A stretch of DNA of 64,000 nucleotides from NCBI RefSeq assembly GCF_054482525.1, contig NZ_CM137006.1; one strand, given 5' to 3'. Shown here piece by piece: positions 13,246 to 22,276 of the stretch. The notes under the pieces were generated by a model. The model did not search any database and was not told the origin of the DNA. It saw only the letters and a list, made by a program, of their open reading frames with translations. The translations under genes and the position numbers were made by a program. The first letter of the stretch is position 1, and each line of letters starts with the position of its first letter.

Positions 13246-14496
13246 GTGCTTACCGATACAAAATTAAAAAACCTCAAGCCGCAGGACAAACTGTACAAGG
13301 TCTCCGATCGTGACGGGCTGTATGTAGCTGTGCTTACGTCAGGCACGGTCTCGTTTCGCTATGACTACCGTATCAACGGTCGTCGCGAAACACTGGTAAT
13401 CGGGCAGTATGGGCGTGACGGTATCAGCCTGGCAGAAGCGCGAGAAGAACTGATTGCTGCAAAGAAGCTGCTTAAAGCAGGCCAGTCGCCGGCTGCGGCT
13501 AAACGTGACGGTATCAAAAAGATTCGTGGTGCCGAGACGTTTGCGGTACATACCGACAGTTATATGAAACACGTCATCCTGGCTGACAGTACCCGCGCAA
13601 TGAAGCAGGCGGTGATTGACCGTGACATACTTCCGGTTCTTGGTAACAAAATGATGGCTGAAATTACCACATCGATGGTTCGTGATTTGTGTGACCGGAT
13701 TGTCGAACGCGGTGGTCGGGCAACAGCAGTACAGGCCAGGGAGATCATCAGCAGCGTATACCGTCACGCCAATGACCGTGGTCATGGTTTGTTTAATCCT
13801 GCGGCTGACATTAAACCTTCGTCTATCGCCATATTTAAACCACGAGAGCGAACACTGACACCAGAAGAAATTGGCCTGTTCTTCCGCACGCTGGATGCCA
13901 TTGGTGCTATGGGCACTATGAAAATGGCTTTAAAGCTGGTGCTTATCACTATGGTTCGTAAAGGCGAATTCACCAACGCAACGTGGGATGAAATAGATTT
14001 TAAAAAATGGACATGGACAATTCCTTCAGACCGCATGAAGGGAAGCCGGGCGCACGTTATTTACCTGCCTAAACAGGCTCAGGATATATTGGTCGGGTTG
14101 CAGATGTGCGCTGGTGGAAGTGAATATCTGGTTCCTGGTCGTTACAATTTCCGGAAGCCATTATCTAATGCCGCGCTGAACTCTCTGATCGACAGAACGG
14201 TGAAAATAATAAATGAAGATGGTGAGCATATTCAGGGCTTCACCGTACACGATATGCGCCGTACAGCCAGTACGTTGTTGCATGAGGCTGGTTATCCTTC
14301 AGACTGGATTGAAAAGGCTCTGGCACATGAGCAGAAAGGTGTGCGCGCCGTATATAACAAAGCGGAATACGCCAGACAGCGCGCCTACATGTTGCAGCAG
14401 TGGGCCGATATGATTGATTCCTGGATTAACGGGGAGCATACGGATCTGATTCCGTTCTCCCCGTCGAAGTTTGAGAAGTGGATGGCGGGGGAATAA
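13246..14496 (+). CDS. int: Tyrosine integrase (P4-type, DUF4102-like N-terminal arm-binding domain)
   Basis: 416 aa with a GTG start. The N-terminus reads LTDTKLKNLKPQDKLYKVSDRDGLYVAV, and catalytic residues appear in HDMRRTASTLL...LAHE...VRAVY. Confidence 0.9.
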   Translation: MLTDTKLKNLKPQDKLYKVSDRDGLYVAVLTSGTVSFRYDYRINGRRETLVIGQYGRDGISLAEAREELIAAKKLLKAGQSPAAAKRDGIKKIRGAETFAVHTDSYMKHVILADSTRAMKQAVIDRDILPVLGNKMMAEITTSMVRDLCDRIVERGGRATAVQAREIISSVYRHANDRGHGLFNPAADIKPSSIAIFKPRERTLTPEEIGLFFRTLDAIGAMGTMKMALKLVLITMVRKGEFTNATWDEIDFKKWTWTIPSDRMKGSRAHVIYLPKQAQDILVGLQMCAGGSEYLVPGRYNFRKPLSNAALNSLIDRTVKIINEDGEHIQGFTVHDMRRTASTLLHEAGYPSDWIEKALAHEQKGVRAVYNKAEYARQRAYMLQQWADMIDSWINGEHTDLIPFSPSKFEKWMAGE

Positions 14497-14499
14497 CGT

Positions 14500-14694
14500 T
14501 TAATAGTTCTGCTGATTTTCTTCCATCTCTGCTTCTGCTGCCAGTGATTCAATTTTGTTTTCGAATATTGCTGACAGTGTTGCAAATTCAGCATCAGTGA
14601 CAGCGGGAATTGGAACAAACCTGATCCCGCTGTGTGCAAGCATGTTTGCAGTTTCAAGGCATTTTCTTAAATCTGCTGGTGATGCCCTGTTCAT
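14500..14694 (-). CDS. Hypothetical 64-aa protein
   Basis: The start MNRASPADLRKCLE overlaps the stop of the methyltransferase gene in an ATGA junction. The longer ORF-track version would overlap the methyltransferase by 124 nt. Confidence 0.5.
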   Translation of the reverse strand: MNRASPADLRKCLETANMLAHSGIRFVPIPAVTDAEFATLSAIFENKIESLAAEAEMEENQQNY

Positions 14695-15341
14695 GCAGCA
14701 CGCTCCCGCCCCTGGTTGTCTGTTGGTGACATCGGAGAATTGCTGAATGCATTTGTTAATCCGCCAATATCCAACGCGTATCCTGGGTGTAGTTGCACTG
14801 CCGGGCCTTCGCACTGGTTACCCCAAACATCGAAGCCATGAGACGTCTGGCGGGCGAACAGTTCAATGCGAGAAACATCGCCTAACAATTGCACAAGTTT
14901 TTCACGAACGACATCTGGTTTTCTTGAATGCTCAAGCCGCGGTGCGGTAAATGACTGAACGATACCTGCATTAATGCGCGGAGGTAGTTTTCCCTTTACT
15001 GCAAACAGGCAATCTTCACTATTGGCGCGAGTCATGTGTCCCATACCCATAACCAGTTTATCTGGTTGTCGACTACCACATTTTATCCACGTGAAGCCCT
15101 TCATGGTCATCAGACGGAATCCCCAGGCTTCAACAACTTTTAGTGCTTCGAGTGGTTGTGTTGGCACCCACCACATGGCCAACAGACAGTTTTCATCGGC
15201 CAAATCCCACACAGGAAGGCGGCAGATATCCAGCACACTCATAACAGGATATTTAAAACCGGCACCGCGATTACCATCTGCGGCTTTGTCCCGGTATACC
15301 CAGGGTGGATCTGCATAGATTAGTGTGTATTTCTTAGTCAT
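14691..15341 (-). CDS. MT-A70-family N6-adenine DNA methyltransferase (orphan)
   Basis: MTKKYTLIYADPPWVYRDK carries the DPPW catalytic motif. The ATG at 15341 overlaps the upstream stop (ATGACTAA). No adjacent restriction gene is seen. Confidence 0.75.
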   Translation of the reverse strand: MTKKYTLIYADPPWVYRDKAADGNRGAGFKYPVMSVLDICRLPVWDLADENCLLAMWWVPTQPLEALKVVEAWGFRLMTMKGFTWIKCGSRQPDKLVMGMGHMTRANSEDCLFAVKGKLPPRINAGIVQSFTAPRLEHSRKPDVVREKLVQLLGDVSRIELFARQTSHGFDVWGNQCEGPAVQLHPGYALDIGGLTNAFSNSPMSPTDNQGRERAA

Positions 15342-15633
15342 AAACCACCCCACAACATCCTATGCCGCTATAGTCGCCACGGCGAAGGCCGTTACCTTTT
15401 GTGATACATTGGTCCCTGCGAACCGCGATCCTTGCACGTTCAACATCACCAGAAGCAACATCCATACACTGAAGCCAAAGGTGAGCGGCAATGCGGAATT
15501 GCCCTTTTTTCTCTCTTTCAATCGCGCGTTTTTCGATCTCTATCGCCGCAGGAGTAACGGCGACAATCTTTGAAGGGCTGCGCATTGAAACCTTGTTCAT
15601 GTGATATTTTTCAAGTCGGCTTAACTTTCTCAC
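15334..15633 (-). CDS. PerC/ANR-like small transcriptional regulator (putative)
   Basis: 99 aa. The core AIEREKKGQFRIAAHLWLQCMDVASGDVERARIAVRRDQC follows the A..E..G..R.AA..W...ER...RR..C pattern that I associate with PerC-family proteins. Confidence 0.45.
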   Translation of the reverse strand: MRKLSRLEKYHMNKVSMRSPSKIVAVTPAAIEIEKRAIEREKKGQFRIAAHLWLQCMDVASGDVERARIAVRRDQCITKGNGLRRGDYSGIGCCGVVYD

Positions 15634-15742
15634 TTAATCCAACCCTCTCTGAAAATTAATGCCAGCAGATAAAGCCATGCTGAAACAGAGGCCAGGAATA
15701 AGTACCATCCTGACCATTTGCTCCAGTGCCTTAGCAGCACAC

Positions 15743-15991
15743 TCATGCAGCGTTGCTCACAGGACGATATACACGTTGCTGAACAGGAGGCTTTTTACCC
15801 TGGAACTCTGCCGGGCTTGCTGCCTGACGTTCATCAAGCCAACGCTCAACTTCATCACGGTTCCATGCGCAGCGTTTATCGGTGATATACCAGCGTTTAG
15901 GAAATTCCCCTGCGCGCTCCATACGGTCGATAGTGCTCCATGACAGTGGCACCACCGCCAGGAGTTCCTTCTTACCTAATGCACCTTTCAT
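15743..15991 (-). CDS. AlpA-family phage regulatory protein / excisionase-like
   Basis: 82 aa. LSWSTIDRMERAGEFPKRWYITDKRCAWNRDEVERWL is typical of AlpA/Xis winged-helix proteins. Confidence 0.7.
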   Translation of the reverse strand: MKGALGKKELLAVVPLSWSTIDRMERAGEFPKRWYITDKRCAWNRDEVERWLDERQAASPAEFQGKKPPVQQRVYRPVSNAA

Positions 15992-16040
15992 AAATACCTC
16001 TCTTGGTTGCAGTGCGGCGCGCGTGGCGCCGCGGTGGTGG

Positions 16041-16922
16041 TTACATAGATGTTTCGTTTAATTCTTCCCGACGAACGCTGTAAACGTCGGTGGCTTTTGC
16101 CAGCAGTTCGTCATCATCTGAAAGTTTTTGTGCAATGTATTTGTAAGCCTTATCCAGTTCGGAGACAGTGCTGTAATTCATCGCTGCGCTGGTAAAGGCC
16201 ATCAGCATTTCTTCTGGCTCACGGCTATCCGCTTTACGCGTTTGCTCATCAGGCTTTTTCACTGATTTAGCGTTGATCAGACTGTTCATTCCCGCAGCCG
16301 TAGTCATTTGCGGAGTAATGTCTCGCTCAACGCGCGGTGCCGTTTCCTGTAATTCGTCAGGGGTGTAAACACCGAGAAGTACATCAGGAGCGTGCAGGCG
16401 AGCCCATCGTTTCGTGCAAAGATAGGCAAGTTGCTGGCGCGGATCCTGTTCCCACAATGGAGAGTTACGCACTCCTGCTTGCGCCATACTGATGGTAAGC
16501 TCACGTGGTTCTGCTTCTCCTTTAAGAACTGCTGACACAGTTACCGTCAGATTCGGTGATTTATCTGTTTTGCCGTTAACATTCGACCAGTCACCGCTCC
16601 AGCGATAATTCAGGCGTGTCGCCAGCAGGCTGGAAGAGGATACGACCGCGTTTACCAACTGTGCTTCGTAGCCTAACGTTCCGTTTACCACATGCGTTTT
16701 CTGCGCCACGGCGAAAGGGTTCATTCCCCACTGTGCCGCCTGCATGGTCACCGCCAGGCAATCGGCAGGTTTGCCTTCAAGATGTTTCGGTACAGTCGCT
16801 TTGCTTTGTGACATCAACTCCGCGAAACGCACCAGTTGATTCATGCCCTCGGGGCTGAAGATTGCCGCAGCAGTGCCTACAGTTGCGCCTGGTTGTGATG
16901 TGATTGCGATATCATTGCTCAT
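16041..16922 (-). CDS. RecT/Bet-family single-strand annealing recombinase
   Basis: 293 aa. It has QAAQWGMNPFAVAQKTHVVNGTLGYEAQLVNAV and is translationally coupled to the exonuclease gene. Confidence 0.6.
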   Translation of the reverse strand: MSNDIAITSQPGATVGTAAAIFSPEGMNQLVRFAELMSQSKATVPKHLEGKPADCLAVTMQAAQWGMNPFAVAQKTHVVNGTLGYEAQLVNAVVSSSSLLATRLNYRWSGDWSNVNGKTDKSPNLTVTVSAVLKGEAEPRELTISMAQAGVRNSPLWEQDPRQQLAYLCTKRWARLHAPDVLLGVYTPDELQETAPRVERDITPQMTTAAGMNSLINAKSVKKPDEQTRKADSREPEEMLMAFTSAAMNYSTVSELDKAYKYIAQKLSDDDELLAKATDVYSVRREELNETSM

Positions 16923-17740
16923 ACGTACATATCCTGTTTACGTGCCCAGTCAGGGCGTTTAATAATTTCCACTCCGCCCCATTCATCGTTGATGCGGCAT
17001 TCGTGATAGGTATTCAGATCCCGGCGGAACAGAGCGTGCCCGGCATCGACATCCGGCGCATCCAGCTCGAACACGCGTACCGGATACCGACCACAATCAA
17101 TGCTTTCGCTCACGGCAAGAAAGAAAAAACCATGTGGCTGACCAGTAACCCTCATTGCGCCTTCGCGGTACATTGCGTCCTGCACGTGGTAGCGGAACTC
17201 CTCGATGTGGCGTGCAAAACGGTCCATATCTGTAACCTTTTTCACGTCGACGATCACGTTGTGCTCTTTCAGCCATTTGTCTGGACGAATGCGGCACAAC
17301 TCACCAGTCTCTTCATCGTTCCAGTACATTGATGCTTCGCAGTAACCAGGTGCTTCCAGCATCCAGCGTGCCGCCGGGTGAGCCATTGCGCTATCACGCA
17401 TCAGCTCCAGTTTCCGCCACTGCTCGGCATCAAGTACCGTAATCCCCATATCCGCCACATCACGAAGAAATGCCTCTTCGTCAGCTTTACCTTGTTTCGT
17501 CCGACGATCGAATTTCGGCGAAACAATGAAGCGTTTGTCGAACTCTCCAGGCTCCAGAAGCAGACAGTGCAATGCGGTTCCCATATCCAGTGCAGACTTT
17601 TTCTCTTCGTCTTCTGGTGCTGCCTGAACCCATTTAAGAAGCGCCGGATTCTTGGCAACCATGTCCAGTTGCGACTTACTCACGCCGTCCCCGGCGTGGT
17701 AGTCTTCGTTGCTGATGTCGAAATAAATTCCCGGCTTCAT
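16919..17740 (-). CDS. PD-(D/E)XK exonuclease, RecE C-terminal (exonuclease VIII)-like
   Basis: 273 aa with GIYFDISNEDYHAGDGVSKSQL and DVKKV...EEFRYHVQDAMY motifs. Confidence 0.65.
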   Translation of the reverse strand: MKPGIYFDISNEDYHAGDGVSKSQLDMVAKNPALLKWVQAAPEDEEKKSALDMGTALHCLLLEPGEFDKRFIVSPKFDRRTKQGKADEEAFLRDVADMGITVLDAEQWRKLELMRDSAMAHPAARWMLEAPGYCEASMYWNDEETGELCRIRPDKWLKEHNVIVDVKKVTDMDRFARHIEEFRYHVQDAMYREGAMRVTGQPHGFFFLAVSESIDCGRYPVRVFELDAPDVDAGHALFRRDLNTYHECRINDEWGGVEIIKRPDWARKQDMYV

Positions 17741-18036
17741 GCCGCGTCCCTCTGCCCATCAAGCTGATCAGCCAGATCCCAGCGGGCGATAATTGCCATT
17801 GCCTCGCGCCGGTAGGAATCCATCAGTTCTTCGAACTCAGGGCTGTCTTTAGCTGCTTCCAGCACTTCCTGGCGAACTCCTTTGCCTGTTACAACGTCGA
17901 AAGTTGAGGCCAGTTGATGAAGCCGGATGCTCTCAATCAGTTCAACTTGTCGGTCATATAGCTGTTCTGACAGGCGGTAGTCCTTGTCGAATGCCAGCAT
18001 GATTTTTTGAAGATTTTTCTGCTGATTAACGTTCAT
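17737..18036 (-). CDS. Hypothetical protein
   Basis: The start MNVNQQK is preceded by GGGAGG. The ORF-track start at 18051 lies inside that SD and inside the upstream small ORF. Confidence 0.5.
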   Translation of the reverse strand: MNVNQQKNLQKIMLAFDKDYRLSEQLYDRQVELIESIRLHQLASTFDVVTGKGVRQEVLEAAKDSPEFEELMDSYRREAMAIIARWDLADQLDGQRDAA

Positions 18037-18038
18037 TA

Positions 18039-18191
18039 TCAGCCCTCCCATATCTCGTTATCGTTGGCCACATCGCGAGCTTCTTTGCTGACGAAAGCCC
18101 ACTTAATACCTTCCTGTAAGGTGCGGAACTTCCAGCTCATGAATCCGCATGCAGTAACGCAGTACCAACCGTTGATGATTTTCCACTGCAT
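18039..18191 (-). CDS. Hypothetical 50-aa protein, first gene of the leftward operon
   Basis: MQWKIINGWYCVTACGFMSWKFRTLQEGIKWAFVSKEARDVANDNEIWEG. A GAGGT SD lies 8 nt upstream. It is below the ORF-track size cutoff. Confidence 0.35.
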   Translation of the reverse strand: MQWKIINGWYCVTACGFMSWKFRTLQEGIKWAFVSKEARDVANDNEIWEG

Positions 18192-18209
18192 AACTTGTTA
18201 CCTCGGTTT

Positions 18210-18226
18210 GTTACCGTTGAGGTAAT
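18210..18226. promoter_or_regulatory. Dyad site O2 (GTTACC-GTTGA-GGTAAT)
   Basis: Perfect TTACC-N5-GGTAA just upstream of the first leftward gene. Confidence 0.6.
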
Positions 18227-18271
18227 GATTATGCGTATTTGGTTTGGTGTCAATAGATATGAGTTAAAAAA

Positions 18272-18288
18272 ATTACCCACAAGGTAAT
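18272..18288. promoter_or_regulatory. Dyad site O3 (ATTACC-CACAA-GGTAAT)
   Basis: Perfect dyad. A TTGACA hexamer on the minus strand lies between O3 and O2. Confidence 0.6.
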
Positions 18289-18297
18289 CTTGCTGGC

Positions 18298-18324
18298 AAT
18301 AAAAAAGCCGCCATGAGGCGGCTT
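18298..18324 (-). terminator. Terminator of the repressor gene
   Basis: On the minus strand, AAGCCGCC-tcat-GGCGGCTT is followed by TTTTTTATT. Confidence 0.8.
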
Positions 18325-18344
18325 ACTTGCTGAAAACTATAGTT

Positions 18345-18929
18345 TTATTGTTTGCTTTTTTCGTTCTGGTTGATGACAAATTCAATGTAACTTTCGATCT
18401 TTGCTTTCTCGGTTTCGGGTAACAATGCGTAGCGCGAGCGGTCATAGTTGATAGTCGCAGGGTCGTGCGGGTGAATCAGTAATTCATAGCCGTGACGCCC
18501 GAATGCGGATGCAACATTCTCCAGGGTGGAAATGGAAACGCTGACCTCATTGTTTAACAGGCGGCTGATTGTCACCTGGGCGACGCCGGATGCGCGGTGA
18601 AGTTTTCCCTGTGTTGAAAGGTCGCGGCTTTCGCTCATCCAGCGTTCCAGGTTGTGAGCCGCCAGCTGACCAATGTCGCTTGGGCCGACAGGCTGAAAAC
18701 CTTCCTGAGAAAGCGAGCGATCGATATCAAGCCAGTTACGGGGTTTATTGGCGGCAGCTTCAATTTTTCGCGCAACCTGGTCGCCGATAACCTTCTTACC
18801 AAGAGCCCAGCGGTTTACCAGATTTGCCTGAGTTCCAAGTTTTTCTGCCATCCGCGTCTGAACACCATTGAATTCACGGTCGATCAAGTCGTTGAGATTT
18901 TGCCTGCGGACGTCCTGGATACTTTTCAT
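18345..18929 (-). CDS. Prophage repressor with two XRE-type HTH domains and no S24 peptidase domain
   Basis: 194 aa. HTH 1 reads VQTRMAEKLGTQANLVNRWALGKK and HTH 2 reads LHRASGVAQVTISRLLNNEVSVSISTLENVASAF. It is divergent from a cro-like gene, and no Ala-Gly or Ser...Lys autocleavage module is seen. Confidence 0.7.
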   Translation of the reverse strand: MKSIQDVRRQNLNDLIDREFNGVQTRMAEKLGTQANLVNRWALGKKVIGDQVARKIEAAANKPRNWLDIDRSLSQEGFQPVGPSDIGQLAAHNLERWMSESRDLSTQGKLHRASGVAQVTISRLLNNEVSVSISTLENVASAFGRHGYELLIHPHDPATINYDRSRYALLPETEKAKIESYIEFVINQNEKSKQ

Positions 18930-18983
18930 TTTCTGGAAAATCGCCTCATATATGAATCAGTAGATGATTCAATTTAAAGCAAT

Positions 18984-19000
18984 ATTACCCAACAGGTAAA
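18984..19000. promoter_or_regulatory. Dyad site O4 (ATTACC-CAACA-GGTAAA)
   Basis: Perfect dyad in the repressor/cro divergent gap. Confidence 0.6.
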
Positions 19001-19031
19001 TGCACCCCATAGGTAACTATCCTTGATTTTT

Positions 19032-19048
19032 GTTACCTTATGGGTGAA
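19032..19048. promoter_or_regulatory. Dyad site O5 (GTTACC-TTATG-GGTGAA), one mismatch
   Basis: It lies in the spacer of a readable rightward promoter, TTGTTA-17-TATTAT. A lone GGTAAC half-site sits at 19011-19017. Confidence 0.45.
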
Positions 19049-19083
19049 TATTTATTATCTGAAATAAATATCAGGCAATAGCT

Positions 19084-19314
19084 ATGAGCGATAACGGACA
19101 TTTCGATTTCAAAAAGCACTGGCTTGCACTTACTCCGGATGAGCGTGAAGCCTTCGCACAGGAAGCCGGAACGACGAGTCACTATATACAGACTCACTTA
19201 ACAGGTAAGCGCAAAATGCCAGGTAAGGTATTGATGAATGGGCTTTTTAAAGCCTGTAAAACAAGACAATGGCTGCGCTCAAAAGCAGAACTGGCATACT
19301 TCTTCTACTCATGA
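19084..19314 (+). CDS. Cro/YdaS-like HTH protein
   Basis: 76 aa with an HTH (EAFAQEAGTTSHYIQTHLTGKR). It is the first rightward gene opposite the repressor. Confidence 0.55.
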   Translation: MSDNGHFDFKKHWLALTPDEREAFAQEAGTTSHYIQTHLTGKRKMPGKVLMNGLFKACKTRQWLRSKAELAYFFYS

Positions 19315-19335
19315 TATCCAGCCACAACCCTCTGT

Positions 19336-19359
19336 AGACCGCCACCCGGCGGTCTTTTC
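19336..19359 (+). terminator. Intrinsic terminator after the cro-like gene (tR1-like)
   Basis: AGACCGCC-accc-GGCGGTCT is followed by TTTTCA. Confidence 0.75.
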
Positions 19360-19368
19360 ATATCTATT

Positions 19369-19385
19369 CGTACCTCAAAGGTAAT
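19369..19385. promoter_or_regulatory. Dyad site O6 (CGTACC-TCAAA-GGTAAT), one mismatch
   Basis: It lies immediately after the terminator and upstream of the replication operon. Confidence 0.5.
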
Positions 19386-19462
19386 AAAAAACCAAATCTG
19401 GTTGATCAAATTTTCCAATTGTGCAAAATAGCCAATATCAATAACAAAAAGGGGCGGAAAAA

Positions 19463-19675
19463 TTGAAGATAGTAACCAGAATGGAGGCCGCAAAAGCCGG
19501 GTTAAATCGCTATTTCACAGGAAAGCGGTGCCGTCACGGCCATCTCTCTGAAAGGTATGTTCTGAACGGAACATGTGTTGAATGTGCAATGAATAGCGCC
19601 AACCGCCATCGTAATGAATTTGCTTGTGCACTAAAGAGTGCAAGAGGGGAAACCTATGGCAAGCAGCTGGATTAA
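19463..19675 (+). CDS. Small zinc-ribbon protein (hypothetical)
   Basis: 70 aa with a TTG start preceded by AAGGGG. It contains GKRCRHGHLSERYVLNGTCVEC. Confidence 0.5.
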   Translation: MKIVTRMEAAKAGLNRYFTGKRCRHGHLSERYVLNGTCVECAMNSANRHRNEFACALKSARGETYGKQLD

Positions 19676-20486
19676 GGTTGAAGTTATCACTCCTGATAAA
19701 CCTGAAATTTTTCAGATAGCAGAAATTCTGGGTATTGATCCAGATGCTGTTCTTGGAAAGCTGGTTCGTATATGGGCATGGGCTGACCAGCAAACAATAG
19801 ACGGTAACGCTGGCAGCGTTACAAAAGGAGTACTTGATAGACTCGCTTTTATTACAGGATTTGCTGACGCCCTCATTAGCGTCGGATGGCTTGCTTATCA
19901 TGACGGCAAACTAATTCTTCCAAACTTTGAGCGACACAATGGAGAATCATCGAAAAAACGTGCACTTACGAATAGAAGAGTGGCAGAGCATCGAAAACGA
20001 GTAACGCAAAAAGTAACGCCAACAGCGTTACAAAAGGAGTTACCAGAGGAAGAGGAAGAGGAAGATATATATAAAACCCCACACATAGCGCACGTGCGCG
20101 AGGGTGCTCCGACCAGTGAAGCGAACAGTACGCCGTTGCAGGTGGCAGAACCTGAATTTCTGGATGGCCTGAGTGAACCCATCGGGAAATTTCCGATGAC
20201 AGATGGCTGGCTACCGTCGCCAGATTTTCGGCGGCGTGCTGCGCTGTGGGGAACGGCCCTGCCGGAACCGGAATTTACACCTGCTGAACTTGCTGCATTC
20301 CGGGATTACTGGATGGCTGAGGGCAAAGTGTTCACGCAGGTTCAGTGGGAACAAAAATTCGCCAGGCACGTAAATCATATCAGGGGAAAATCAAAAAATG
20401 CCGGGAAAAGCGATGAGCTTGACTGGAATAACACTGACTGGATAGAAGGGGTGTGGGATGAAATCAACTCCAGAACTTCTCAATGA
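19656..20486 (+). CDS. Replication initiation (O-like) protein with DnaT-like C-terminal domain
   Basis: It starts at MASSWIKVEV, has an acidic EEEEEED linker, and has the C-terminal DGWLPSPDF...ELAAFRDYWMAEGKVFTQVQWEQKF. It is followed by a lambda-P-like gene. Confidence 0.6.
   Translation: MASSWIKVEVITPDKPEIFQIAEILGIDPDAVLGKLVRIWAWADQQTIDGNAGSVTKGVLDRLAFITGFADALISVGWLAYHDGKLILPNFERHNGESSKKRALTNRRVAEHRKRVTQKVTPTALQKELPEEEEEEDIYKTPHIAHVREGAPTSEANSTPLQVAEPEFLDGLSEPIGKFPMTDGWLPSPDFRRRAALWGTALPEPEFTPAELAAFRDYWMAEGKVFTQVQWEQKFARHVNHIRGKSKNAGKSDELDWNNTDWIEGVWDEINSRTSQ
19804..19831. repeat. Iteron-like repeat 1: GTAACGC-TGGCA-GCGTTAC-AAAAGGAGT
   Basis: A 7-bp inverted repeat with a 5-nt spacer and a 9-nt tail, near-identical to 20013-20040 but read in a different codon phase. 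Confidence 0.55.
20013..20040. repeat. Iteron-like repeat 2: GTAACGC-CAACA-GCGTTAC-AAAAGGAGT
   Basis: Second copy, with an extra GTAACGC half-site at 20001-20007. It is followed by a polypurine tract, AT-rich GATATATATAAAA (20064-20076) and the palindrome GCGCACGTGCGC (20088-20099). Confidence 0.55.
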
Positions 20487-21234
20487 GTACGATCGCTTAC
20501 GTGAGCATGGTGTTGCTGTGCATGAAGAGCGGCGTGACAGCAATGGCAAAAAGGAGCAGGTTGCTAGAATTTTCAATGAACTATTTGTCCAGTTACAGGC
20601 TGCATTTCCTGCAAGCGTTTCGACCATAAGGGAGCAGAACAAACTTAATGAATTCCGTAAGCAATGGATGCTTGCGTTTCTGGAGAATGGGATCACTACA
20701 ATGGAACAGGTTAACGCTGGTATGCGCCACGCCCGCGCCAGTGAATCTCCGTTCTGGCCGTCGCCAGGGCAATTCATCAAGTGGTGCAAAGACAGCAAGA
20801 TGGTTCTTGGCGTCACCATTGACGATGTGATGGCGGAGTTTCACCGGTACAGCAAGGAAAAAAGTTTATATCCTGGTGGTCCCGAAAGATTCCCGTGGCG
20901 ACATCCGGTTATGTACTGGGTCGTATGTGATACCCGCCGTGCAATGTATCAGCGCCAGCTTAGCGAGATTGAGGTTGAGAAACACGCGCGCAGGCTGCTC
21001 GATGATTGGGCGAAAAAGGTGGCTTCCGGACAGCAGATACCCGATCCGGTGATCAGCATACAGGCAAAGCCAGAACCCATGAGTACGCCTCCTGACACTG
21101 GGAGAGACGTTTACCATCCACCAGGGCGAAGTTTCGGGTGCATGCCTAACGCCGCCACCCTGGGGGGAATAACACCGGCGCAGTGGCTGATAGAGGAATA
21201 CAGGCGGGGAAAGGCGGCAGGATTTATCAAGTAA
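20458..21234 (+). CDS. Lambda P-like replication protein (DnaB helicase loader)
   Basis: 258 aa. FPASVSTIREQNKLNEFRKQWMLAFLENGITTMEQVNAGMRHARASESPFWPSPGQFIKWC closely parallels the lambda P sequence as I recall it. Confidence 0.8.
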   Translation: MKSTPELLNEYDRLREHGVAVHEERRDSNGKKEQVARIFNELFVQLQAAFPASVSTIREQNKLNEFRKQWMLAFLENGITTMEQVNAGMRHARASESPFWPSPGQFIKWCKDSKMVLGVTIDDVMAEFHRYSKEKSLYPGGPERFPWRHPVMYWVVCDTRRAMYQRQLSEIEVEKHARRLLDDWAKKVASGQQIPDPVISIQAKPEPMSTPPDTGRDVYHPPGRSFGCMPNAATLGGITPAQWLIEEYRRGKAAGFIK

Positions 21235-21269
21235 TACCAGCGCGATAGCGCATTTTTTTACGCCTACAT

Positions 21270-21286
21270 GATTACCTGTTGGGTAA
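21270..21286. promoter_or_regulatory. Dyad site O7 (ATTACC-TGTTG-GGTAAT)
   Basis: Perfect dyad. TTACCT (21271-21276), 17 nt, then TCTAAT (21294-21299) reads as a promoter. Confidence 0.6.
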
Positions 21287-21331
21287 TAAAATGTTCTAAT
21301 CTCTATTGATTTCATGTCTTATGTGGTTTTT

Positions 21332-21348
21332 AATTACCTAAGGGGTAA
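21332..21348. promoter_or_regulatory. Dyad site O8 (ATTACC-TAAGG-GGTAAA)
   Basis: Perfect dyad overlapping the RBS of the gene starting at 21352. Confidence 0.55.
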
Positions 21349-21351
21349 ATC

Positions 21352-21696
21352 ATGAGAAAACAGATACAGGCTCTTGGTCGACTCAAAACAGGCCAAATGA
21401 ACAAAACAGAATCTGCGTATTGCCAGCACCTTGAGCTGCGTAAACGTGCAGGAGAAATCGTCTGGTATCGATTTGAGGGTATCAAGCTGCGGTTAGCTGA
21501 CAACACGTTCTATACGCCCGATTTTGCTGTGATGCTCGCCACCGGCGAGATGGAACTGCACGAAGTGAAAGGTTTCTGGACCGACGACGCCAGGGTGAAA
21601 ACCAAAGTCGCCGCAGATCAGTATCCGTTCCGAATCATCGGGGTAACGGTTAAACCAAAGAAAGCAGGTGGTGGCTGGAACATCGAAGAGTTCTGA
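21352..21696 (+). CDS. DUF1064-like PD-(D/E)XK nuclease (possible Holliday junction resolvase)
   Basis: 114 aa with the YTPDF...HEVKG motif. Confidence 0.5.
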   Translation: MRKQIQALGRLKTGQMNKTESAYCQHLELRKRAGEIVWYRFEGIKLRLADNTFYTPDFAVMLATGEMELHEVKGFWTDDARVKTKVAADQYPFRIIGVTVKPKKAGGGWNIEEF

Positions 21697-21757
21697 AGCG
21701 ACGATCTTTTTAGTTATCAATGTAATCAATAAGTTATGTGGATAAGCGAGGGTAAAG

Positions 21758-22276
21758 ATGGAAAGTAATATCAAAGGGTTAGTTGCCGCCGGGCATGAGA
21801 TGGCTTCGGAACTGAAAGCAGAATGTGGTGCCGTTGATATGCGCAGTGTGGCAAAGCTGATCAGCGATTTGGCAACGCAACTGGAAGTGCAACTGGTGCG
21901 TGCTAATGCGCTGGCGGCGGAGAATGAGCTGGCTCGTAAGGCAGTTCAGGCATTCTGCGATGTTGTTGGCGACAACACCGAGGTTATCGCTGAGGTGGTT
22001 GGGCGAGATGGCGTTCTGGTTATTTTGGAGGCCATGAAGGCAACAGGAAATATGCCAGCCACCGATGCTTTCCTGGCTGAAGTGCGGGCGCAGGGCGTGG
22101 ATGCTGCTATAGAAGCTGCAAAAAATCTGGTGGCCCAAGAATATGAGTATAAGGATTTCAAAGCGGCGCAGAGTGATTGCTGTATGCACCCTGGTTCAGA
22201 TCTGGTAGGGAAGGTTGAAATGACTGAGTGGTTAGTTGACTTTGCTGCCCAGCTTCGCAAAGGAGGCAACCAGTGA
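21758..22276 (+). CDS. Hypothetical protein
   Basis: A 172-aa ORF with phage-like coupling to the next gene. Confidence 0.5.
   Translation: MESNIKGLVAAGHEMASELKAECGAVDMRSVAKLISDLATQLEVQLVRANALAAENELARKAVQAFCDVVGDNTEVIAEVVGRDGVLVILEAMKATGNMPATDAFLAEVRAQGVDAAIEAAKNLVAQEYEYKDFKAAQSDCCMHPGSDLVGKVEMTEWLVDFAAQLRKGGNQ

Follow-up and report, generated by a model that had tools for sequence, protein, structure and literature searches.

The replication origin of phage lambda lies in the middle of gene O, in which an AT-rich tract comes after iterons that are inverted repeats; a pair of iterons together with this tract is enough for unwinding, and the O protein also binds single-stranded DNA (PMC7466680, PMC3349717). 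The Rac prophage has likewise been reported to carry an active origin, oriJ (PMC3945230). Here we analyse a 64,000-nucleotide (nt) stretch of contig NZ_CM137006.1 (assembly GCF_054482525.1), called the window below, in which a phage replication initiator gene holds two clusters of a 7-base-pair (bp) half-site, a polypurine tract and an A/T-only run within its own coding sequence. We consider it probable that positions 19804-20080 are a phage replication origin laid out on the lambda plan and served by a different initiator family. A preliminary description of the sequence had proposed such a layout, with inverted-repeat iterons and a purine/AT tract inside the initiator gene and a P-type loader gene next to it, and this arrangement is what we find. 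Our literature search found no description of an origin for this initiator family or of its motif, and the RefSeq annotation of epsilon15 lists no origin in the initiator region.

Half-site array within the initiator gene

The elements of the locus, with positions counted from the first letter of the window, are listed here.

19656-20486, + strand: replication initiator gene, 276 amino acids (aa) from ATG 19656; the longest open reading frame (ORF) begins at GTG 19638
19804-19822, no strand assigned: cluster 1, full dyad GTAACGC-TGGCA-GCGTTAC, in the DNA encoding the N-domain loop G50-T56
20001-20007, + strand: cluster 2 half-site 1, GTAACGC, the weakest site (GAAACGC in many close relatives)
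20013-20031, no strand assigned: cluster 2 half-sites 2 and 3, full dyad GTAACGC-CAACA-GCGTTAC, with near-invariant arms and a hypervariable spacer
20037-20043, - strand: cluster 2 half-site 4, GAGTTAC as read on the + strand, with a single C between it and the purine tract
20045-20065, + strand: polypurine tract (AGAGGA)3AGA, 21 nt, AGAGGAAGAGGAAGAGGAAGA, a local variant of the family-wide tract AGAGAAGAGAAGAGAAGAGAAGA
20064-20076, no strand assigned: A/T-only run GATATATATAAAA, 13 bp, candidate site of first strand opening
20077-20080, no strand assigned: C-run CCCC ending the A/T run; relatives have CCCC or CCCCCC-TAA-CCCCCC
20088-20099, no strand assigned: palindrome GCGCACGTGCGC, 12 bp, lineage-specific
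20458-21234, + strand: lambda-P-type helicase loader gene, sharing its first 29 nt with the 3′ end of the initiator gene

Direct reading of the sequence gives GTAACGC-TGGCA-GCGTTAC-AAAAGGAGT at 19804-19831 (copy 1) and GTAACGC-CAACA-GCGTTAC-AAAAGGAGT at 20013-20040 (copy 2), and a repeat search recovered this 28-nt pair at 89% identity. The positions that the preliminary description had assigned to both copies, to the half-site at 20001-20007, to the purine run, to the AT stretch and to the palindrome all match the sequence. Its codon phases are also correct when counted from ATG 19656: copy 1 starts at codon position 2 and encodes D-G-N-A-G-S-V-T, and copy 2 starts at codon position 1 and encodes V-T-P-T-A-L. 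The 28-nt pair it had proposed as the repeat does exist, but the unit of function is the 7-bp half-site rather than the 28-mer. The shared 9-nt tail is less conserved than the arms. In copy 2 the tail is simply the spacer plus the beginning of a fourth half-site, and the second locus reads GTAACGC (20001), N5, GTAACGC (20013), N5, GCGTTAC (20025), N5, GAGTTAC (20037), that is, four half-sites oriented -> -> <- <- at 12-bp spacing, 209 bp from cluster 1. Half-site 4 is a perfect GCGTTAC in a Klebsiella phage, in Rac-442/2 and in most distant relatives. A Shine-Dalgarno reading of AAAAGGAG, with AAGGAG in the tail, was rejected, since copy 2 has no start codon behind it and the tail differs among relatives, consisting in copy 2 of spacer and half-site 4.

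When the 19-bp dyad pattern was searched with up to two mismatches, it was found in only two places in the 64 kb (19804-19822 and 20013-20031); shuffled sequences averaged 0.2 matches, with two reached in 2 of 100 shuffles. The heptamer GTAACGC by itself is present in 24 copies in the whole window against 7.2 expected from shuffles. Clustering is limited to the five copies at 19804-20031, the remaining copies being scattered, and the scattered excess probably reflects codon usage (GGT-AAC-GCx).

Conservation of the half-sites as DNA

Constraint on the array was assessed in 47 unique close-relative sequences with at most 23% nucleotide divergence, drawn from viral contigs and phage records. Outside the arms, 104/123 third codon positions are variable and 90/123 strongly so. 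Within the arms of the two full dyads, 0/8 third positions are strongly variable (Fisher 5.5e-5 versus elsewhere), and 2/28 arm positions vary at all. The 5-nt spacers are free to vary. In dyad 1 the only variation is at spacer position 19814, against 86% variable third codon positions elsewhere, and the dyad 2 spacer is hypervariable, including non-synonymous changes among P/Q/R/L and among T/P/A/S/I/V. Invariant arms around a free spacer point to base-specific recognition of the dyad. In the epsilon15-type subfamily (74 unique sequences), the half-site is GTCCGC/GCGGAC, and there 0/16 third positions within half-sites are strongly variable versus 78/117 elsewhere (Fisher 1.7e-7), which on this comparative evidence is an independent replication of the arm constraint. 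In the window phage and 47 close relatives, site 2 is in a different frame from site 1 and encodes a different peptide. The earlier proposal that the repeat is conserved as DNA and not as protein is thus supported twice over, by the frozen synonymous arm sites in two subfamilies and by the frame change of site 2.

More distant relatives were collected by tblastn of the N-domain against phage records, and ten loci were inspected. GTAACGC/GCGTTAC recurs at the matching two gene positions (~nt 149-200 and ~345-404) in Rac-type prophages (442/2), Xanthomonas phage CP2, Pseudomonas phages VW-6S and PAN70, Ralstonia phage YL1 and an uncultured Manatee Spring phage, with protein identities of 48-66% and a G+C content (GC) of up to 64%. 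The cluster 1 dyad has the same gene position in Rac-442/2, CP2, YL1, the Manatee Spring phage and a Planctomycete prophage, the last of which carries the window's dyad with its spacer included, and in Rac half-sites 3 and 4 are separated by an inserted 11 bp. The translation of site 2 is G-N-A-x-S-V-T, in the frame of site 1, in Rac-442/2, CP2, YL1, the Manatee phage and the Planctomycete relatives, and V-T-x-x-A-L in the window. Since the frame of site 2 differs between the window and these distant relatives, the motif has persisted through reading-frame changes. In phages with 62-64% GC, the GGT and GTT codons are kept.

An unbiased hexamer count revealed other subfamilies that use a different half-site, each at both clusters. 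Vibrio phage 1.211.A has TGTCAC/GTGACA, Ralstonia phage Raharianne has GTAGAC/GTCTAC (with GTAGAC also in a metagenomic relative), and a Planctomycetales metagenome-assembled genome has GTTGCGC/GCGCAAC at both clusters. In epsilon15 and phiPSA1 the half-site is GTCCGC/GCGGAC and both clusters form -> -> <- <- arrays, cluster 1 of the epsilon15 type lying elsewhere in gene and protein (nt 55-101). A wider survey, limited to one genome per species, took in 80 loci of Pseudomonadota, Planctomycetota, Verrucomicrobiota (Akkermansia among them) and other groups. In 69/80 loci a single half-site class is present four or more times, two more classes (GTCACG and GTGACG) appearing among them; the two-cluster arrangement is present in 58/80, and a purine run stands directly 3′ of the last half-site in 62/80. 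There are at least seven half-site classes (GTAACGC, GTTGCGC, GTCACG, GTGACG, GTAGAC, GTCCGC and TGTCAC), each found at both clusters of its own gene. Such concerted change of the two clusters fits a single trans-acting protein whose specificity has diverged, and no gene product other than the N-domain is shared by all loci.

One alternative would do without any DNA-level function and attribute the repeats to chance or to a repeated peptide (G-N-A-x-S-V-T, and R-E-E-K-R-R-E in the purine tract). It can draw on the majority of distant relatives, which read both sites in one frame as the same peptide, and a frame shift in the tract is not very telling because (GAGAA)n is translated in every frame as a cyclic permutation of R-E-E-K-R. 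A peptide would not account for the other frame of site 2 in the window phage and its 47 close relatives, for synonymous positions that are frozen in the arms only, for GGT/GTT retained at 62-64% GC and tract arginines encoded by AGA in 26/26 cases (see below), or for an epsilon15-type cluster 1 at a different protein position (nt 55-101). We regard this explanation as extremely improbable.

The dyads could also be operators, through which the initiator, or another regulator of phage or host, autoregulates or blocks the replication operon while replication starts elsewhere. Two Rac-type genomes, Rac-442/2 and phage 673R7, contain one more full dyad, GTAACGCTGCGAGCGTTAC, ~31 nt 5′ of the initiator start codon, and this third dyad could be an autoregulatory operator there. 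This is a typical operator position, cluster 1 is far from the A/T tract, and repressor operators just as typically combine dyad symmetry with a free spacer. The third dyad is absent from the window, whose phage has no dyad upstream of the initiator gene, and cluster 2 always abuts the universal purine and A/T tract, regardless of which half-site it carries, and an operator does not need such a tract. Besides the initiator, no candidate regulator is common to all loci. Operator function in place of an origin therefore seems quite unlikely to us; autoregulation and origin function can coexist.

Purine tract, A/T run and module boundary

An identical 23-mer, AGAGAAGAGAAGAGAAGAGAAGA, is found in eps15, phiPSA1, CP2, YL1, Raharianne, the Manatee phage and the Planctomycete prophage, and in the window and the Rac lineage its place is taken by (AGAGGA)n. 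The hexamer AGAGGA varies from 2 to 5 copies among close relatives, giving tracts of 15-35 nt, and so behaves as an in-frame microsatellite inside the putative origin. The junction of half-site, C and AGAG is fixed in all half-site classes. Arginine codons within the tract are AGA in 26/26 cases versus 60/230 AGR elsewhere in the same genes (Fisher 2.6e-14), and this exclusive use of AGA holds even in phages of 57-64% GC. Because of this codon choice we conclude that the tract is kept as DNA; its translation (R-E-E-K-R-R-E, or E-E-E-E-E-E in the window) is, on the same codon evidence, a by-product or at most a co-constraint.

Next to the tract lies AAGATATATATAAAA (20062-20076), which has the lowest stability of any 15-mer in 18900-21400; the 20-mer around it falls at the 98.8th percentile of the window. 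All close relatives have an A/T-only stretch 3′ of the purine tract and then a C-run. The palindrome of the preliminary description is indeed present at 20088-20099 but does not hold as a conserved element: the exact GCGCACGTGCGC occurs in only 22/83 close loci, with CGCGCGCG-type or CCCCC..GGGGG motifs in the others. Its folding as a DNA hairpin is no stronger than that of shuffled sequences (z-score -0.5), and on these two grounds it was rejected as a core element. It is a lineage-specific form of a recurrent GC-rich or (CG)n motif 3′ of the A/T run, and is probably non-essential. The A/T run is followed by CCCCCCTAACCCCCCAAGGGGG in Klebsiella-type phages, PAN70 and Raharianne, and by (CG)n in epsilon15 and TL-2011b; some GC-rich boundary, rather than this palindrome sequence, may be what matters.

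Megablast matches to other phages break at 20065-20080, around the C-run. The match to BUCT554 ends at 20080, a Klebsiella phage match spanning the N-domain module ends at 20065, and a match of the DnaT-like C-domain to another phage begins at 20067. In the Rac prophage of K-12, ydaU joins an unrelated DUF1376 N-half, with repeats of its own, to a C-half of the Rac-442/2 type. From the mosaic joints and the K-12 versus 442/2 ydaU fusion, it follows that the N-domain and the repeats travel as one module.

The joints at 20065-20080 would also be expected of a recombination boundary or a module-exchange linker, and the region might act through nucleic-acid structure (a hairpin or cruciform, a triplex or an R-loop) and not as a protein-binding origin. 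As single strands, both repeat loci form stable hairpins (-7.6 and -8.8 kcal/mol, z ~ -4.6), but their arms are invariant within subfamilies and show no compensatory pair changes, which argues for base-specific recognition, and the flanking direct-repeat half-sites at 11-13 bp spacing fit duplex binding and not a simple hairpin. The common 20-nt core of the tract, AGAGAAGAGAAGAGAAGAGA, is by direct reading a perfect mirror repeat, whereas the (AGAGGA)n variant of the window is not, and a mirror repeat or H-DNA was accordingly rejected as the conserved principle. A terminator-like TTTTT follows dyad 2 on the minus strand; no T-run follows dyad 1, and the feature is not conserved. On the + strand the hairpins are followed by AAAAGG, and an intrinsic terminator was rejected. 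No Rfam family matches the region, and an Rfam scan of 18000-22000 returned no credible RNA family. A recombination hotspot, for its part, could result from a conserved origin sequence. Taken together, we hold a purely structural or recombinational role to be very unlikely.

Structure could enter in another way, in that the near-universal tract may do more than melt easily. The early transcript carries the purine strand, so an R-loop at the tract is conceivable. The tract in this transcript might then form a stable RNA:DNA hybrid (R-loop) at AGAGAAGAGAAG, or a triplex, and the initiator bound at the adjoining half-sites might pass the opened structure to DnaT-/PriA-like or P-type loading, which would make this a transcription-primed origin found across several phyla. 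We consider this version unlikely.

The initiator, its neighbours and comparison with known origins

The initiator matches phrog_2509 ('replication initiation protein'), and its sole Pfam match is the DnaT DNA-binding domain at aa 185-255. The N-domain matches no Pfam or NCBIfam family, and the Pfam search gave no match to Phage_rep_O, the family of lambda O. The gene had previously been called O-like, a name that holds by analogy only: homology to lambda O is not borne out, and the C-domain is DnaT-like. Against the DnaT equivalog NF002770 the protein scores 92.3 bits (cut-off 201) and aligns over aa 177-258 only; its identification as DnaT (primosomal protein 1) was rejected because the cut-off for the full-length equivalog is missed. 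There is no match to DUF1376 at E <= 0.01 and the N-half of K-12 YdaU is unrelated, and a YdaU/DUF1376 type was rejected as well. In an AlphaFold model built on 48 homologues, a confident helical, winged-helix-like N-domain with a beta-hairpin (aa 5-95) is followed by a long basic helix (aa 97-118) and a disordered linker (aa 124-169), and the DnaT-type single-stranded DNA-binding C-domain occupies aa ~178-255. The linker corresponds to 20025-20162, so that the purine tract, the A/T run, the palindrome and the 3′ half of cluster 2 fall in DNA coding for the least-constrained part of the protein.

The motif P-N-F-E-R-H-N-G-E-S-S-K-K-R-A (19920-19964, aa 89-103) and the basic helix that follows it are near-invariant in all half-site classes. 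This near-invariant protein motif and the near-invariant purine tract may form a protein-DNA partnership. One possibility is that the invariant F-E-R-H-N-G-x-S-A-K-K-R-A and the basic helix recognise the invariant tract, leaving the variable half-sites to be read by those parts of the domain that vary.

The next gene is a lambda-P homologue, as had been proposed, with matches to Pfam Phage_lambda_P (PF06992, E 1.7e-55) and to phrog_109 ('P-like helicase loader', 2.9e-88). In this region the phage is 98-99.9% identical to Escherichia phages HEMP4, ZX5 and TL-2011b. A 70-aa Cys-rich ORF (C-x-H-G-H ... C-x-x-C; phrog_1081) at 19463-19675 on the + strand overlaps the start of the initiator gene; it is found in close Enterobacterial relatives and not in distant family members, and it was rejected as the binding protein because it is missing from most distant motif-bearing loci. 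Further upstream lies a lambda-like immunity region (18345-19355). It comprises a helix-turn-helix repressor read leftward (18345-18929), a 76-aa regulator read rightward (19084-19314, phrog_35), a promoter-like site (19030-19058) and, just 5′ of the replication genes, a strong terminator-like hairpin (19336-19355). DnaA boxes are at chance level, with one weak box at 19420-19428.

These elements suggest a possible order of events at the putative origin. Dimers of the winged-helix-like N-domain would bind the 7-bp half-sites in both clusters, and protein-protein contacts between the clusters, 209 bp apart, would bend or loop the intervening DNA into a looped or wrapped complex. The resulting stress would open the adjoining polypurine and A/T tract (20045-20076), whereupon the DnaT-like C-domain would hold the exposed single strand and, with the P-like loader, recruit host DnaB. 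Transcription through the gene from the early rightward promoter would probably help, as in lambda. The present data show the sequence features, their constraint as DNA, the joint change of both clusters between subfamilies, the domain architecture and the module boundary; origin firing, the initiator as the binding protein and melting of the tract are what we infer.

Several observations weigh against placing an origin here. The A/T-only run measures 13 bp versus 38 bp in lambda, and over 40-bp stretches the region does not fall below nearby intergenic DNA in stability. The clusters are 209 bp apart, whereas lambda iterons are contiguous, and across the family the distance between clusters (193-279 bp) is not strictly helically phased. 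Because the motif lies inside the gene and is co-inherited with the protein, covariation with the N-domain is by itself no proof of binding, and at site 1 the DNA motif coincides with the conserved peptide G-N-A-x-S-V-T, so that the two are confounded. Over 14000-20000, the GC skew reverses sign at ~18-20 kb, where the early operons change from leftward to rightward, and was rejected as origin evidence because it coincides with divergent transcription.

If the origin reading is correct, an origin and a specificity code would be defined for a large initiator family to which no origin had been assigned, and which ranges over epsilon15/phiV10-type phages, Rac-type prophages of E. coli and Shigella, phages of Pseudomonas, Xanthomonas and Ralstonia, and prophages of Planctomycetes and Akkermansia. 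Origins in this family could then be found by a simple rule, namely to locate the purine tract in the initiator linker and to read the half-sites upstream of it. The half-site classes would offer natural specificity variants for studies of initiator-iteron co-evolution, and small origin cassettes could serve phage-derived replicons. The family also presents a 23-nt DNA sequence that is identical across hosts of very different GC content.

Among known systems, the initiators of Gram-positive phages, the replisome organisers, bind repeats in their own coding sequence beside an AT-rich region, as with SPP1 G38P and oriL in gene 38; no sequence or Pfam relationship to them was detected, and their hosts and helicase loaders are different. 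DnaT of the PriA-dependent restart primosome differs in that our initiator has a winged-helix-like phage domain in place of the DnaT N-terminal half and is paired with a P-type loader. The Rac prophages are close in part. Those of 442/2 and 673R7 carry the window-type N-domain and GTAACGC dyads, fused to a C-half of the K-12 YdaU type and followed by the DnaC-like YdaV, and the Rac of K-12 differs in having YdaU with a DUF1376 N-domain and (A/G)TGTTCAAACA repeats. In K-12 ydaU (NC_000913 1421119-1421976), (A/G)TGTTCAAACA occurs twice in the linker, at gene nt ~393 and ~426, and once more in inverted form at ~449, and these repeats are candidate iterons of oriJ, which is not annotated in NC_000913. 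Because the N-domain and repeats of K-12 YdaU differ, oriJ experiments do not bear on the GTAACGC sites, and K-12 Rac was rejected as an experimental proxy for the same reason.

The closest likeness is to oriλ, the origin of lambda and of Shiga toxin (Stx) phages. In both, the known or putative origin sits in the initiator gene, between the origin-binding N-domain and the loader-interacting C-domain; the repeats are ~18-19 bp long, each an inverted repeat; a P-family loader gene lies directly downstream; and exchange between phages moves the repeats along with the N-domain, as a specificity module. The lambda ori sequence has a purine-rich AT tract beside its repeats and then GC-rich or palindromic DNA, and the same order is seen here. 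The locus differs from oriλ in that its initiator has no detectable relation to O and has a DnaT-like C-domain, and in that its sites form two clusters 209 bp apart where lambda has 4-6 contiguous iterons. Neighbouring half-sites here are both direct and inverted at 12-bp spacing, and the A/T-only run is 13 bp and not 38 bp, beside a purine tract that is near-identical across very distant hosts. What we infer from this comparison is a lambda-plan origin in a different and very widespread initiator family, with the two site clusters and the near-universal purine tract as its new aspects.

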